Positions 3,094 to 10,163 of a DNA stretch of 64,000 bases are shown in pieces. Made by a program: the position numbers and the translations under genes. The notes under the pieces were generated by a model. The model was not told the origin of the DNA. It saw only the letters and a list, made by a program, of their open reading frames with translations, and did no database searches. How positions within the stretch are numbered: the stretch's first letter is position 1; the number at the start of each line of letters is the position of its first letter. Source of the stretch: Kiritimatiellia bacterium (lineage in GTDB: Bacteria; Verrucomicrobiota; Kiritimatiellia; CAIKKV01); contig JAWOJA010000010.1 of the NCBI GenBank assembly GCA_046484345.1, forward strand, positions 1,811-65,810. The letters run 5' to 3'.

Positions 3094-4233
3094 ATGCATC
3101 AGAATGATGAAATCAGAGAAGCGTTGCAACGCCTGCGCGCGAAAGAAAGGGACATCACGTTCGGCGTGGTGGGCGCCGGGCACGGCGGCCTCGCCATGGC
3201 GGGGCACCTGGGGCTGATGGGCTTTCCCGTGCGCCTGTACAACCGGACCGGGGAAAACCTGCACGCCGTCCGCTGGCACGGCGGCATCCGGGTCAGCGGC
3301 GAGGTGGAGGGGTTCGGCCCCGTGCAGACAGCCTCCTCCTCCATGGCCGAGGCCATCGATGGGGCCGACATCCTCATGGTCGTCGTGCCCGCCACCGCGC
3401 ACCGTTTCGTCGCCGAAAAAATGGCGCGGGCTCTGCGCCCCGGCCAGATGATTGTGTTGAACCCGGGCCGAACGGGGGGGGCGCTCGCCTTCCGGCACGC
3501 CCTGATGGCGCAAAACGTGCATGTTCCCGTTTTAATCGGCGAAACGTCCACGTTCCTCTACGCCTCGCGCGCCCTTTCGCGCTCGGAAGCCCGCATCTTC
3601 CGGATCAAAAACACGGTCCGCTTCGCCACCCTTCCGGCCTACCTTATCCCCGAAGCCCTTCCGGCCCTGCGGTGGGCTTTCCCCCAATTTGCGGCGGGCG
3701 ACAGCGTGCTCTCCACCGGCATGGAAAACATCGGCGCCATTTTCCATCCGGCCCTGACGCTGCTGAACGCCGGGCGGATCGAGTCCACAAAGGGCGACTT
3801 CGACTACTACATCGAAGGCATCACCCCATCCGTGGCCCGGGCGCTCGAACGGCTCGACGCCGAGCGGGTGGCCGTGGCGGCCGGTCTCGGCGTGCATGCG
3901 GTTTCCGCCCGCGATTGGCTCTACCTCACCTACGGCTCCTCGGGGGCCGACCTGTACGAAGCCATTCAAAACACCTCCGCCTACCGGGGCATCCGCGCGC
4001 CCGCGACCATTATGCACCGCTATGTGACGGAAGACGTGCCCATGAGCCTGGTCCCTTTCGCCTCCCTGGGGCGCATGCTGGGCGTTCCCATGCCGATGAC
4101 GGAAATGGTCATCGATCTGGCCAACGCCATGCATGAAACGGACTACTGGGCCGATGGGCGGACCGTGTCGAAAATGGGCATCGAGGGGATGTCCGTCAAA
4201 CAAATCCGACAACTGGCGGTCGGTCTCGCCTGA
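3094..4233 (+). CDS. NAD(P)-dependent opine dehydrogenase family protein (octopine/nopaline/staphylopine dehydrogenase-like)
   Basis: Start at internal ATG 3094 with an AGGAGA RBS. N-terminal Rossmann motif ITFGVVGAGHGGLAMAGHL. C-terminal region AIFHPALTLLNAGRIESTKGDFDYYIEGITP is typical of the opine-dehydrogenase helical domain. Confidence 0.7.
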   Translation: MHQNDEIREALQRLRAKERDITFGVVGAGHGGLAMAGHLGLMGFPVRLYNRTGENLHAVRWHGGIRVSGEVEGFGPVQTASSSMAEAIDGADILMVVVPATAHRFVAEKMARALRPGQMIVLNPGRTGGALAFRHALMAQNVHVPVLIGETSTFLYASRALSRSEARIFRIKNTVRFATLPAYLIPEALPALRWAFPQFAAGDSVLSTGMENIGAIFHPALTLLNAGRIESTKGDFDYYIEGITPSVARALERLDAERVAVAAGLGVHAVSARDWLYLTYGSSGADLYEAIQNTSAYRGIRAPATIMHRYVTEDVPMSLVPFASLGRMLGVPMPMTEMVIDLANAMHETDYWADGRTVSKMGIEGMSVKQIRQLAVGLA

Positions 4234-4254
4234 CCGCCGTCTAAAGGAGTCTCC

Positions 4255-4929
4255 ATGGAAATCCTGTTCGATCACCTGTCTGCCGTGCCGAACTGGCTGG
4301 TTGCCGTTTTCTTGCTCATCGCCGGGGGGCTGGCCGCCACGGTGGCCCGGCTGCTCATCGTCCGCCTGCTGCAACTGCTGCGCTTCAATCACCTGTGCGA
4401 CCGGCTCGGCGCCACCGACTTTCTCCGGACGGGCGGCGTATCGAACCCGCCCGCCGAACTGGTCGGACGCGGCATCTCGGGACTGCTCCTGATCGGGATT
4501 TTCCTCGAGGCCGCCCGCATTCTGGACATCTCCGCCATCCACGAACTGCGCCAGCGCGCGGCGGCGGCGCTGCCGGCCCTCCTCAGCGCCCTCCTGGTGT
4601 TGGCCGTGGGCCTGATGGTTGTCGCCTTCCTCGCCGGCTTTCTGAGAACCGTCGTCCGCAACGCCGGCAACCCCTACGCCAATCTCTGGGCGCGCATCGC
4701 CCGGTGGACCGGCGCGATCCTCGTGCTGGCCCTGGCGCTGGAGCAGGCCGATATCCGGGGCACCATCCTGCCCGGCGTCATCCAGATCGTCATCGCCGCC
4801 TTCGCCTTCGGCATGGCGCTTGCCTTTGGGCTGGGTTGCAAGGAAATGGCCCGCCACGCCATGGAGAGGCTGGTCGCCGATCTGAAAGAACGCCATCGCG
4901 AAGACCCCAAACCGGACCTGGAAGGATAG
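4255..4929 (+). CDS. Integral membrane protein with repeated conserved-TM-helix segments (MscS-associated TM_helix-like)
   Basis: 224 aa with several hydrophobic helices separated by short Arg-rich loops. AAGGAG RBS. It lies 21 nt after the opine-DH-like gene and 4 nt before the B12-binding gene. Confidence 0.55.
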   Translation: MEILFDHLSAVPNWLVAVFLLIAGGLAATVARLLIVRLLQLLRFNHLCDRLGATDFLRTGGVSNPPAELVGRGISGLLLIGIFLEAARILDISAIHELRQRAAAALPALLSALLVLAVGLMVVAFLAGFLRTVVRNAGNPYANLWARIARWTGAILVLALALEQADIRGTILPGVIQIVIAAFAFGMALAFGLGCKEMARHAMERLVADLKERHREDPKPDLEG

Positions 4930-4933
4930 CCCC

Positions 4934-8345: not shown

Positions 8346-8361
8346 AAAAGAAGGAACGGTC

Positions 8362-9405
8362 TTGAACAACGGGTACGTCGCGTTCTCCCTCTGGTTGCTG
8401 GGCGGCTTGGTGGCGTCAAGGGCAACCCACGCCGCCTGGCGCCGGATCTTCCTCCCGCTCGCCCGCCGCACCCGAACCCGCCTCGATATCATGGTCTTCG
8501 AGCGGACACAGACCCCGGCACAGTGGACCGTTTTCTTCGCGGCGCTCAACATGGGCGCACGCTCGATCGTTCAGAACCACCCGATGATCGTCAACCATGT
8601 CGCGTGGAGCGCTTACACGGGAATCGTCTATACGGCCCTTGTTTTCGCGATGACGATCATCCTCTATTCCGCCTTCCGGGCTGCCGCCGAGTGGTACGCG
8701 CAGGAGATCGCGGGGAAAACAGCCAAAATCCGCGACAACCAGTTCATCGAGTTGTTCCGAAAGATGGCGAAATTTGTCTTTTTCTTCATTGCCATCACGA
8801 TCGTGTTCGACCATTTCGGAGTCGAGATCACCGGCCTCCTGGCGACCGCCGGAGTCGCCTCGGTGGCCGTCGCCTTGGCGGCCCAGGAAACCCTCAGCAA
8901 CATGATCGCCGGCTTTGCCCTGATGGCGGACCACCCGTTCCGGCCCGGCGACAGGGTCGAATTGGCCAACGGCAAAATGGGCGACGTGCTGGAGGTGGGC
9001 CTCCGCAGCACGAACATCCTGGCGTTCGACGGCACGGTGATCAACATCCCCAACTCCGAAATTGCCAAAAACCAGATCGTCAACCTCAACGCGCCGAATC
9101 CCACGTTCAAGATCCGCGCGACCCTCGGCGTGGCCTACGGCTCAGACCTGCGGAAGGTGAAGCGCATCCTTCTCGACATTTTCAAAGCCCATCCCGAAGT
9201 CCTTCCGGATCCGCCGCCCGCCGTCTACTTCACCGATTTCGCCGATTCCTCCCTGAAACTGTTCTATGTCTGCTGCGTCCCCGACTACCACGATCAGTTC
9301 CGAATCCGGGACGAGTTGAACATGGCGATCAAGGACCGGTTCGAGGAAGAGAACGTGAATATCCCCTTCCCGCAGCAGGATGTTCATCTCTATCGCAAGA
9401 TGTAA
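8362..9405 (+). CDS. Small-conductance mechanosensitive channel, MscS family
   Basis: TTG start with AAGGAA RBS. TM helices are followed by a conserved MscS beta-domain ([42 protein letters not shown]). Confidence 0.8.
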
Positions 9406-9428
9406 TCATCCGGAAGCCCGAGGCCCCC

Positions 9429-10163
9429 ATGAAACCCTGGTTCGAAGAACTCGATTACCGCCGCACGCCGATGGGCGAACTGGTTCTCCAGCGACGCCGG
9501 ATCGCCGAGATGGGCGACGCCGAGGCGTACGAGGTCAAGCTCAACAGCGAGTACCTCATGTCGAGCCTCTTCCACGAGGCGGAAGTGGCGCTGGCCGACC
9601 TGGCCCTGGCCCGCCTCCCGGGGTCGGACTGGGAGGTGGTCGTCGGCGGGCTGGGCCTCGGGTATACCGCCGCGGCGACCCTCGCGTTCAAACAGACGAA
9701 ACGTTTAGTCGTCGTCGAAGCCCTCGAGCCCGTCATCGATTGGCACTGCAAGGGGCTGGTGCCCAACGGCCCGCTTTTGTCCGACGACCCGCGCTGCGTC
9801 TATCACCACGCCGATTTCTTCGCATTGGCGCGCGGAAGCGGGTTCGACCCCGCAACGCCCGATTACCGGTTCGACGCCGTGCTCCTGGATATCGACCACA
9901 CCCCGAAGCACCTGCTGGCGGTCGGGCACACCGATTTCTACACCGAGGCCGGCGTGCGGCGGCTCGCGCGGTTTATCAAGCCCAACGGCGTGTTCGGGCT
10001 CTGGTCGAACGAGCCCCCGGATGACGCCTTCCTGGCCATCCTGACCCGGGTGTTCGGTCGCGCCGAGGGCCACGTTGTCGCATTCGACAATCCCCTCCAG
10101 AACAAACCCGCCTCCAACGGCATCTACGTGGCGGGGGGAGCCCTGTCTCACGGGGCCGTATAA
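9429..10163 (+). CDS. Spermidine/spermine-synthase-fold (PABS) aminoalkyl transferase-like protein, lacking the N-terminal tetramerisation domain
   Basis: 244 aa. VVVGGLGLGYTAAATLA resembles the GGGDGG SAM-binding loop. AVLLDIDHTP resembles the DSSDP catalytic motif of aminopropyltransferases. Confidence 0.6.
   Translation: MKPWFEELDYRRTPMGELVLQRRRIAEMGDAEAYEVKLNSEYLMSSLFHEAEVALADLALARLPGSDWEVVVGGLGLGYTAAATLAFKQTKRLVVVEALEPVIDWHCKGLVPNGPLLSDDPRCVYHHADFFALARGSGFDPATPDYRFDAVLLDIDHTPKHLLAVGHTDFYTEAGVRRLARFIKPNGVFGLWSNEPPDDAFLAILTRVFGRAEGHVVAFDNPLQNKPASNGIYVAGGALSHGAV

Follow-up and report, generated by a model that had tools for sequence, protein, structure and literature searches.

Results and Discussion

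Organisation of the gene cluster

We analysed a 64,000-nucleotide stretch of DNA (hereafter the window) from a Kiritimatiellia bacterium (GenBank assembly GCA_046484345.1, contig JAWOJA010000010.1, positions 1,811 to 65,810), in which six genes of the plus strand, here called g1 to g6, follow one another at 3094-10163 (Table 1). They encode an opine dehydrogenase (ODH), a membrane protein, a cobalamin (B12) enzyme, an AsnB-type amidotransferase, an MscS-family channel and a protein of the spermidine-synthase-like PABS fold. As set out below, g1 to g4 and, to a lesser degree, g5 belong to a unit that recurs in many genomes. Its constant core is the ODH together with what is very probably a new single-chain, glutamate-mutase-like, adenosylcobalamin-dependent enzyme encoded by g3; g2 and g5 are accessories, and g6 is a neighbour of the unit.

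An original prediction, made from the DNA sequence alone, had described six co-directional genes with spacers of 4-23 nt and ribosome-binding sites throughout. This layout was confirmed. The spacers from g1 to g6 measure 21, 4, 19, 16 and 23 nt, and a purine-rich ribosome-binding site lies 5-10 nt upstream of each start (AGGAG, AAGGAG, GGAAGGA, AAGGAG, GAAGGAA and GAGG, respectively). No terminator-like site was found at the junctions between g1 and g6, and a candidate promoter precedes g1. The GC content at third codon positions is even over g1 to g6 and their neighbours (0.83-0.86) and gives no sign that g5 or g6 is foreign. The domain labels proposed for the six proteins also hold, that of g3 being an understatement.

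The opine dehydrogenase

The g1 protein matches the Octopine_DH family (PF02317, E value 1.4e-49) and aligns over its full length with the N-(1-D-carboxyethyl)-L-norvaline dehydrogenase (CENDH) of Arthrobacter sp. 1C (PDB 1bg6, 2.2e-76). In this alignment the catalytic residues His202, Arg292 and Asp297 of CENDH stand opposite a histidine, an arginine and an aspartate of g1, which has both the Rossmann domain and the helical Octopine_DH domain. As judged by these matches, g1 is a bona fide opine dehydrogenase. Unlike CENDH and the other NAD(P)H-dependent opine dehydrogenases, the ODH of this module is paired with a B12 mutase and is, in many lineages, fused to an N-terminal EIIA domain (Ntr type) of the phosphotransferase system; we found this fusion in Planctomycetota, Lentisphaerota, Syntrophales, Dehalococcoidales and Acidobacteriota. 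The EIIA fusion and a g2-type membrane protein never occur together, and appear as mutually exclusive accessories of the dehydrogenase. One protein (P0387) looked like a "Rosetta stone" fusion of ODH and mutase; its tail is frameshifted, probably by an assembly artefact, and it was not used.

A single-chain mutase-like enzyme

The product of g3 is 100% identical to a protein that carries the name "MAG: cobalamin-binding protein" at NCBI, and the original prediction likewise saw a B12-binding or B12-domain protein. The B12 part of this description stands, whereas the protein is more than a B12 domain, its predicted fold being that of a full mutase. At the sequence level g3 gave no Pfam match (even at an E value of 10), no NCBIfam match and no PDB match, and a profile built on it found nothing among PDB sequences. 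The AlphaFold model (predicted local distance difference test score 85.4, predicted TM score 0.88) comprises an N-terminal cobalamin-binding Rossmann domain (residues ~10-140) and a C-terminal TIM barrel like that of the glutamate mutase E subunit (residues ~215-600), the barrel type of the glutamate-mutase-type isomerases. The Rossmann domain contains the base-off/His-on motif DxHxxG...SxL...GG. In its first part, D20-x-H22-x-x-G25, H22 and G25 are invariant and the conservation of D20 is at least 90%. Homologues number more than 2,700, with 60-84% identity across phyla.

Searched with a profile, 1.84 billion cluster representatives yielded 569 relatives of g3, the distant ones matching the B12-binding (PF02310) and MutE (PF06368) families and being fused to MutL, the glutamate mutase reactivase, or to an ATP-grasp domain. 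g3 itself belongs to neither family; only distant relatives such as P0282 and P0297 match them. A widened alignment (A3) matched GlmE of E. coli O157 with an E value of 1.4e-4; a conserved glutamate in the sequence SYSE falls opposite Glu329 of GlmE, and the motif AFxxGxLxVP is common to both. With the narrow alignment (A1), hhalign gave no significant match to GlmE or GlmS, the signal appearing only with A3. The model and these motifs indicate that g3 is very probably a fused, S-E ordered, glutamate-mutase-like enzyme dependent on adenosylcobalamin. Some of the distant proteins (P0306, P0349, P0338 and P0282) form a sister family of ~540-570 aa and multidomain proteins in which the mutase is joined to MutL (PF13941) or to an ATP-grasp domain of the glutathione-synthetase type.

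Glutamate mutase (GlmS/GlmE or MutS/MutE, EC 5.4.99.1) consists of two subunits, whereas g3 is one chain of 619 aa, and neither a mutL nor a methylaspartase gene is linked to it. The ornithine 4,5- and lysine 5,6-aminomutases differ from g3 in another respect, the B12 domain of g3 having no conserved lysine; a pyridoxal phosphate-dependent aminomutase is unlikely for the same reason. To our knowledge, no known mutase is partnered with an opine dehydrogenase, and 3-methylaspartate, an aspartate analogue, is the sole known product of this mutase fold.

Conserved linkage of the module

We found relatives of g3 in 401 species-level genomes and retrieved 80 loci (designated L). To assess linkage, same-strand neighbours within 3 kb were counted in the 49 of these loci whose flanks both extend to 2.5 kb or more. 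An ODH gene lies by the mutase gene in 41 of the 49, over more than ten phyla; AsnB-type genes follow with 19, g2-type membrane proteins, which adjoin the ODH, with 13, and MscS genes with five. The hosts include bacteria of the Planctomycetota-Verrucomicrobiota-Chlamydiota (PVC) group, Syntrophales, Armatimonadota, Spirochaetota, Acidobacteriota, Chloroflexota and Bacillota. These counts support the view that g1 to g4 and, less strongly, g5 are a functionally linked unit which matches no characterised pathway. To that extent the original prediction of a combination outside the canonical pathways holds. Its expectation that all six families would co-occur in other genomes is borne out for the ODH and mutase core, not for the six-gene set.

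Around this core the loci vary. Genes for Ddl-like ATP-grasp proteins adjoin it in seven loci, an alanine racemase gene lies directly downstream in L020, and the Armatimonadota loci have a gene for a "Cyclase"-family hydrolase downstream. In several Bacillota no ODH accompanies the mutase, whose neighbour there is an M20 peptidase, an Orn/Lys/Arg decarboxylase or an amino-acid ABC transporter. In Tissierellia and Clostridium, tandem T-box leaders stand before an amino-acid ABC transporter (SBP_bac_3) just downstream of the mutase. The closest Kiritimatiellia relative with long flanks (L011, 4133-13005) encodes, in order, a ClC channel with CBS domains, a riboswitch-like element, an ODH, a transmembrane protein, the mutase, a citrate synthase, an MscS channel and MarC; the citrate synthase occupies the position that AsnB has in the window.

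The association at the core was noted as early as 2009, when a new family of B12-dependent proteins was predicted for 11 genomes of four phyla (Zhang, Rodionov, Gelfand and Gladyshev, BMC Genomics 10:78; PMC2667541). Those authors also noted a D-Ala:D-Ala ligase and an asparagine synthase nearby; their report gives no experiments, function or GlmE fold assignment, and no MscS, EIIA or riboswitch context (PMC2667541). That family is almost certainly the g3 family, as we infer from the text, which lists no accession numbers. Our literature search for a characterised system of ODH and B12 enzyme found nothing beyond this prediction. The fold assignment, the logic of the accessory genes and the link to a Li+/Na+ riboswitch are new. 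Expression data come from Thermoanaerobacter sp. X514: the account of its ethanol shock reports that Teth514_2106 (AsnB), Teth514_2107 (hypothetical protein) and Teth514_2108 (ODH) fall together four- to six-fold, and that the expression of Teth514_2107 and 2108 goes up in a strain adapted to ethanol (PMC3751872). Judging by the gene order, Teth514_2107 may be a g3 homologue.

Amide-forming enzymes and MscS-type membrane proteins

The g4 protein scores 415.3 on the asparagine synthase equivalog TIGR01536 (cutoff 267.1) and 473.6 on PRK09431, under the cutoff of 499. Its N-terminus, MCGIL, provides the Cys1 nucleophile, the motifs SGGLDS and SGEGADE are conserved, and E. coli AsnB (1ct9, 5.5e-83) is the nearest solved structure. 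A genuine asparagine synthetase had been named beforehand as a sign that the gene was an unrelated housekeeping neighbour. The first half of this is consistent with the equivalog match; the second is contradicted by the retention of AsnB-type genes beside the mutase.

The AsnB-type genes near the mutase are of two forms. The long form resembles g4 and has Cys1, and some of its members pass the AsnB equivalog cutoff. The short form (435-469 aa), found downstream of the mutase in L002, L009 and ~15 other loci, starts with MAGIAG, MSGIAG or MTAIAG, has no Cys1, misses ~60-80 residues of the glutaminase domain and scores under the cutoffs; it is presumably ammonia-dependent or repurposed, to judge from these losses. 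A beta-lactam-synthetase- or CarA-like role for the short form is at most a distant prospect, given that E. coli AsnB is a far better match for the short and long forms (1e-42 and 5e-83) than beta-lactam synthetase or CarA (1e-15 to 1e-20). Loci that have no AsnB-type gene often carry instead a gene for a divergent ATP-grasp protein of Ddl-like or L-amino-acid-ligase (LAL) type. Four forms of the amide-forming enzyme are interchangeable, namely AsnB of the long or the Cys-less short form and ATP-grasp proteins of the Ddl-like or the LAL type, and AsnB or ATP-grasp enzymes accompany the core in ~40% of loci.

The two membrane proteins are related to MscS in different ways. g2 contains the "conserved TM helix" repeats of MscS proteins (PF05552, 26.1 bits, cutoff 22) and no channel beta-domain; its match to NF033912 is restricted to the N-terminal membrane part. 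g5 is a complete MscS, with TM2/3 (PF21088), beta-domain (PF00924) and C-terminal domain (PF21082) all over cutoff. Homologues of g5 with 56-65% identity directly adjoin the mutase in L011, L016, L017 and L025.

An alkali-cation riboswitch in related loci

We scanned the related loci, ~840 kb in all, with Rfam. An nhaA-I element (RF03057) is located 5' of the module in nine loci, reaching the gathering score in eight of them and scoring 34, under the cutoff of 37, in L011; no nhaA-I match occurred elsewhere in the scanned sequence. In L012, L011, L051, L026 and L009 the element stands 37-250 nt upstream of the first module gene on the same strand. In the Planctomycetales loci L018, L021 and L022 it precedes a gene for a small membrane protein homologous to that of L009, beside a LysR gene and the module. 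The nine elements have 96% of cells paired, and 8 of 14 pairs show compensatory changes on both sides. The small membrane protein shares the motif VRYxDIRxL...WRRY between L009 and L021, and looks like a new member of the nhaA-I regulon tied to the ODH/mutase module.

The nhaA-I class (Li+-I/Na+-II) is an ON switch for Li+, with rare variants responding to Na+, and its known targets are nhaA, nhaD and the osmotic genes otsA, trkA and mscS (White et al. 2022, Sci Rep 12:19145; PMC9646797). An ODH/mutase operon is not named in Supplementary Table I of that study, where it may hide under "Other, various" (PMC9646797). The module thus shares with the published regulons the same RNA class upstream, with the difference that this holds for relatives of the window copy and not for that copy itself. 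In close relatives of the window, moreover, the operon or its immediate surroundings include a ClC channel, an MscS channel and a P-type cation ATPase.

Table 1. Positions of the genes and elements discussed (numbering of the window or of the respective locus)
Feature	Sequence	Position	Strand	Basis or remark
g1, NAD(P)H-dependent opine dehydrogenase, CENDH-like, 379 aa	window	3094-4233	+	PF02317 and PDB 1bg6 matches
g2, polytopic membrane protein, MscS "conserved TM helix" repeats, no channel beta-domain, 224 aa	window	4255-4929	+	PF05552
g3, predicted single-chain adenosylcobalamin-dependent mutase-like enzyme, 619 aa	window	4934-6793	+	B12 motif and fold
g4, AsnB-type glutamine-dependent amidotransferase/adenylating enzyme, 510 aa	window	6813-8345	+	TIGR01536
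g5, MscS-family mechanosensitive channel, 347 aa, TTG start	window	8362-9405	+	PF21088, PF00924, PF21082
g6, PABS-fold (spermidine-synthase-like) protein, 244 aa	window	9429-10163	+	Foldseek; co-directional neighbour outside the conserved module
Candidate operon promoter, sigma-70-like	window	3040-3068	+	TTGTCT-17-TATCAT, 9/12 consensus matches; consensus match only
Candidate arsR promoter, divergent	window	2986-2957	-	
arsR	window	2558-2986	-	
hgcA (corrinoid protein HgcA)	window	1566-2585	-	NF040863, 396 bits (cutoff 275)
hgcB	window	about 1261-1565	-	NF040864, 111 bits (cutoff 99)
arsC-like gene	window	839-1264	-	
DsbD-like gene, convergent with g6	window	10148-10861	-	
Thioredoxin gene	window	10865-11353	-	
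Trx_3 gene	window	11364-11597	-	
RND efflux system: permease (1028 aa), adaptor (354 aa), TolC-like outer-membrane protein (673 aa)	window	11594-17759	-	
nhaA-I element	L012			directly before ODH
nhaA-I-like element	L011			42 nt before ODH; Kiritimatiellia locus, score below cutoff
nhaA-I element	L051			37 nt before mutase
nhaA-I element	L026			before a 57-codon ORF, then EIIA-ODH
nhaA-I element	L009			ahead of a 109-aa membrane protein, followed by ODH, TM protein, mutase, AsnB
Small membrane protein (~110 aa), 3' of nhaA-I	L009	5787-6116		no Pfam match
Small membrane protein (~110 aa), 3' of nhaA-I	L021	4454-4813		no Pfam match
Small membrane protein (~110 aa), 3' of nhaA-I	L018	248-748	-	no Pfam match
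Small membrane protein (~110 aa), 3' of nhaA-I	L022	4382-4882	-	no Pfam match
Tandem T-box leaders	L050	2860-3404		
Tandem T-box leaders	L068	10007-10510		
Tandem T-box leaders	L070	7628-8126		
Tandem T-box leaders	L072	14542-15108		

A possible role in alkali-cation stress

The nhaA-I elements that relatives carry 5' of the module point to a function in salt stress, most likely the synthesis of a compatible solute. We tentatively favour, with slightly less than an even chance of being right, the view that the module makes an amino-acid-derived compatible solute or organic counter-ion under Na+/Li+ stress. The original prediction had offered an osmolyte, polyamine or metal-chelator system; its osmotic and ionic flavour is retained by the MscS-type proteins, the ClC channel, the P-type ATPase, the EIIA fusion and the riboswitch, whereas the metal chelator, in the sense of a metallophore, is not. 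The use of a corrinoid by HgcA, also encoded in the window, was counted in favour of the solute proposal.

Starting from the observed protein identities and folds, the gene linkage and the riboswitch association in relatives, we infer the direction of the pathway, the order of its steps, its substrates and its product as follows. The mutase would catalyse a radical 1,2 rearrangement of the carbon skeleton of a glutamate-type amino-dicarboxylate, either free (glutamate to 3-methylaspartate) or already N-alkylated. The ODH would condense an amino acid with pyruvate or 2-oxoglutarate, at the expense of NAD(P)H, to an N-(carboxyalkyl) amino acid. The g4 enzyme, or a Cys-less AsnB or ATP-grasp ligase in its role in other lineages, might then adenylate and amidate an aspartate-like carboxylate and so remove one negative charge. 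Finally, g2 and g5 could act as a tension sensor and an emergency release valve, letting the solute out when turgor rises. A narrower version, in which the product is a new opine-type compatible solute such as an amidated N-(carboxyalkyl) 3-methylaspartate or glutamate, and in which the pathway is switched on by intracellular Na+/Li+ through the riboswitch or through EIIA(Ntr)- or MscS-type sensors, seems to us possible and rather doubtful.

Parts of this scheme have known parallels. An AsnB-type amidotransferase or ATP-grasp ligase is likewise dedicated to an amino-acid-derived compatible solute in the N-acetylglutaminylglutamine amide (NAGGN) system (asnO-ngg); g4 is not an orthologue, scoring 260 bits on the NAGGN amidotransferase model, whose cutoff is 570. 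Some ectoine clusters, as in Nitrosopumilus maritimus, contain an mscS gene, and we take this channel to be a release valve within a solute operon. Opine formation and a B12 rearrangement, on the other hand, have no counterpart in the NAGGN or ectoine systems.

Several observations weigh against the solute proposal. The window contains no nhaA-I, B12 or other riboswitch, the leader of the operon holding only the divergent arsR promoter region, and the element is present in only 9 of the 80 loci, with none in the scanned Bacillota, Spirochaetota and Armatimonadota loci. Where it is present, nhaA-I mainly senses Li+, and the response could be one of cation detoxification instead of osmoprotection. 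Moreover, the source habitats, which include digesters, groundwater, lakes and peat, are not notably saline. As regards the enzymes, g4, like some of its counterparts, has the score of an ordinary asparagine synthase B, and these proteins may simply produce asparagine; genes for an adenosyltransferase or a reactivase are not linked to the module. In g3, the N-terminal half of the barrel, where the glutamate-binding arginine claw and the catalytic Glu are expected, could not be aligned with GlmE, which makes a glutamate-like specificity a guess; several arginines of g3 (R221, R337, R374 and R443) are conserved.

The alternative that survives best, although we regard it as unlikely, is a catabolic or fermentative module, in which ODH and mutase degrade an imported N-carboxyalkyl or branched amino-dicarboxylate, or serve anaerobes as an opine-type sink for pyruvate and NADH. 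The opine dehydrogenases of marine invertebrates balance pyruvate and NADH in this way, both core reactions are reversible in known homologues, and most hosts are anaerobes of digesters and sediments. The Bacillota mutases that lack an ODH and sit among peptidase, decarboxylase and transporter genes would fit, as would the hydrolase of the Armatimonadota loci. However, the ATP-consuming amide-forming enzymes argue for biosynthesis, and an alkali-cation ON riboswitch and MscS channels are unexpected for a nutrient pathway. The ABC transporters of Tissierellia are weakened as evidence for it, being transcription units separate from g3 because they have tandem T-box leaders of their own.

A role in cell-envelope chemistry, in which the module would make or modify a D-amino-acid or diamino-acid building block of peptidoglycan, is improbable. 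Amidation of meso-diaminopimelate or of D-Asp cross-bridges is a known activity of AsnB-type enzymes, and ligases of the Ddl type join D-alanine. The Ddl-like ATP-grasp genes beside the core, the alanine racemase gene of L020, a weak, sub-threshold Peptidase_M15 match in one distant g3 relative and the ligase and synthase noted in 2009 (PMC2667541) all lean this way. Against it, the Ddl-like proteins score 202 and 60 bits where the Ddl cutoff is 243, no mur, ddl or pbp genes are linked, and the riboswitch, the EIIA fusion and the ion-channel context would be left unexplained.

Whatever its product, the module is of interest in several respects. Adenosylcobalamin isomerases are a small and heavily studied class, and a new family, ~60% identical across phyla and present in no fewer than 401 species-level genomes, would extend B12 enzymology as well as the estimates of microbial B12 dependence. 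The pairing of a mutase with an ODH points to undescribed chemistry, and regulation through an alkali-cation riboswitch suggests that environmentally relevant hosts (PVC bacteria, syntrophs, spirochaetes and thermophilic clostridia) have a salt-stress response not recognised so far. Should the narrower proposal of an opine-type compatible solute be correct, the module would contain the first adenosylcobalamin-dependent step in osmolyte biosynthesis and a new substrate class for B12 mutases, and would give bacterial opine dehydrogenases a physiological role beyond crown-gall opines and metallophores. Together with the accessory logic and the riboswitch link, the fold assignment makes the function of the module directly testable: the analysis provides a fold-based hypothesis, Na+/Li+ as a cue and, in Thermoanaerobacter sp. 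X514 (Teth514_2106-2108), a host in culture for which expression data exist.

The sixth gene and the flanking regions

The g6 protein was modelled with high confidence (AF2, predicted local distance difference test score 91.7), and the top 50 Foldseek matches are all aminopropyltransferases (E value ~3e-12, TM score ~0.7, 12-18% identity). The fold comprises the N-terminal beta-domain and the Rossmann domain of the PABS family. The protein has no Pfam match, PF01564 included. Spermidine synthases carry the canonical motif GGGDGG, which is selective for decarboxylated S-adenosylmethionine (SAM); in g6 the invariant sequence GGLGLG takes its place, and the acidic residue that excludes the carboxylate of SAM is absent. 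The description of g6 as a spermidine-synthase-like transferase is therefore right as to fold, and fails as to this motif and the family PF01564. Although source databases label it spermidine synthase, the g6 family is probably not one.

A place for g6 in the same unit as the other five genes, as originally assumed, is contradicted by its neighbourhood. No g6 homologue lies beside the mutase in any of the 49 loci. The stop of g6 overlaps that of the convergent DsbD-like gene by 16 nt, and the block 9429-11597 recurs on an unrelated contig (L008, 6001-11318) with amino-acid identities of 70% for g6, 72% for DsbD, 51% for thioredoxin and 83% for Trx_3. g6 belongs with this DsbD/thioredoxin block and is a neighbour, not a component, of the module. 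Its family (more than 7,500 matches) is ~65-70% identical over Desulfobacterota, Lentisphaerota and Kiritimatiellia, the usual neighbour being a small Methyltransf_23 gene; in L005-L007 a g6 homologue adjoins a PduO-type cobalamin adenosyltransferase gene, and in L091 the second gene upstream of one encodes an MscS protein.

Such an unrelated neighbour raises the question of whether the whole cluster came about by chance, from housekeeping genes (asparagine synthase, spermidine synthase and MscS) that happen to stand next to an ODH. This is the best description for g6, and the equivalog match of g4 and the database label of g6 agree with it. For g1 to g4 it is very improbable, being refuted by the conserved synteny of the mutase with ODH and AsnB-type genes and further opposed by the co-regulation of Teth514_2106-2108 (subject to the identity of 2107) and the independent prediction of 2009.

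Least probable of all, and largely refuted by synteny, is a staphylopine-like metallophore, the original comparison being with cntKLM: g6 would supply a SAM-derived aminoalkyl group, the ODH close the molecule and the channel export it, which agrees with an ODH of the same Pfam family as CntM (PF02317, the last biosynthetic step of staphylopine and pseudopaline), with the fold of g6 and its lack of the acidic residue that keeps out the SAM carboxylate, and with the metal-related genes on the flanks, whereas g6 is unlinked and has neighbourhoods of its own, the operon offers no other candidate for CntL, the ODH is nearest CENDH and not CntM, a B12 mutase and AsnB stand in place of CntL and CntK, and the recurrent neighbours in the 80 loci include no nicotianamine-synthase-like (CntL-type) gene, histidine racemase, major facilitator superfamily (MFS) exporter or metallophore ABC importer.

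The cluster had also been placed between two metal(loid)-resistance clusters. This is half right. Upstream, arsR, hgcA, hgcB and an arsC-like gene are found; downstream, the DsbD-like and thioredoxin genes are followed by a pump of the resistance-nodulation-division (RND) type, which is at most a putative metal pump, its permease scoring under both the multidrug and the CusA/CzcA cutoffs. The upstream genes hgcA and hgcB are a mercury-methylation pair, here in a Kiritimatiellia metagenome-assembled genome, and lie divergent from the ODH operon across a common intergenic region of 107 nt.

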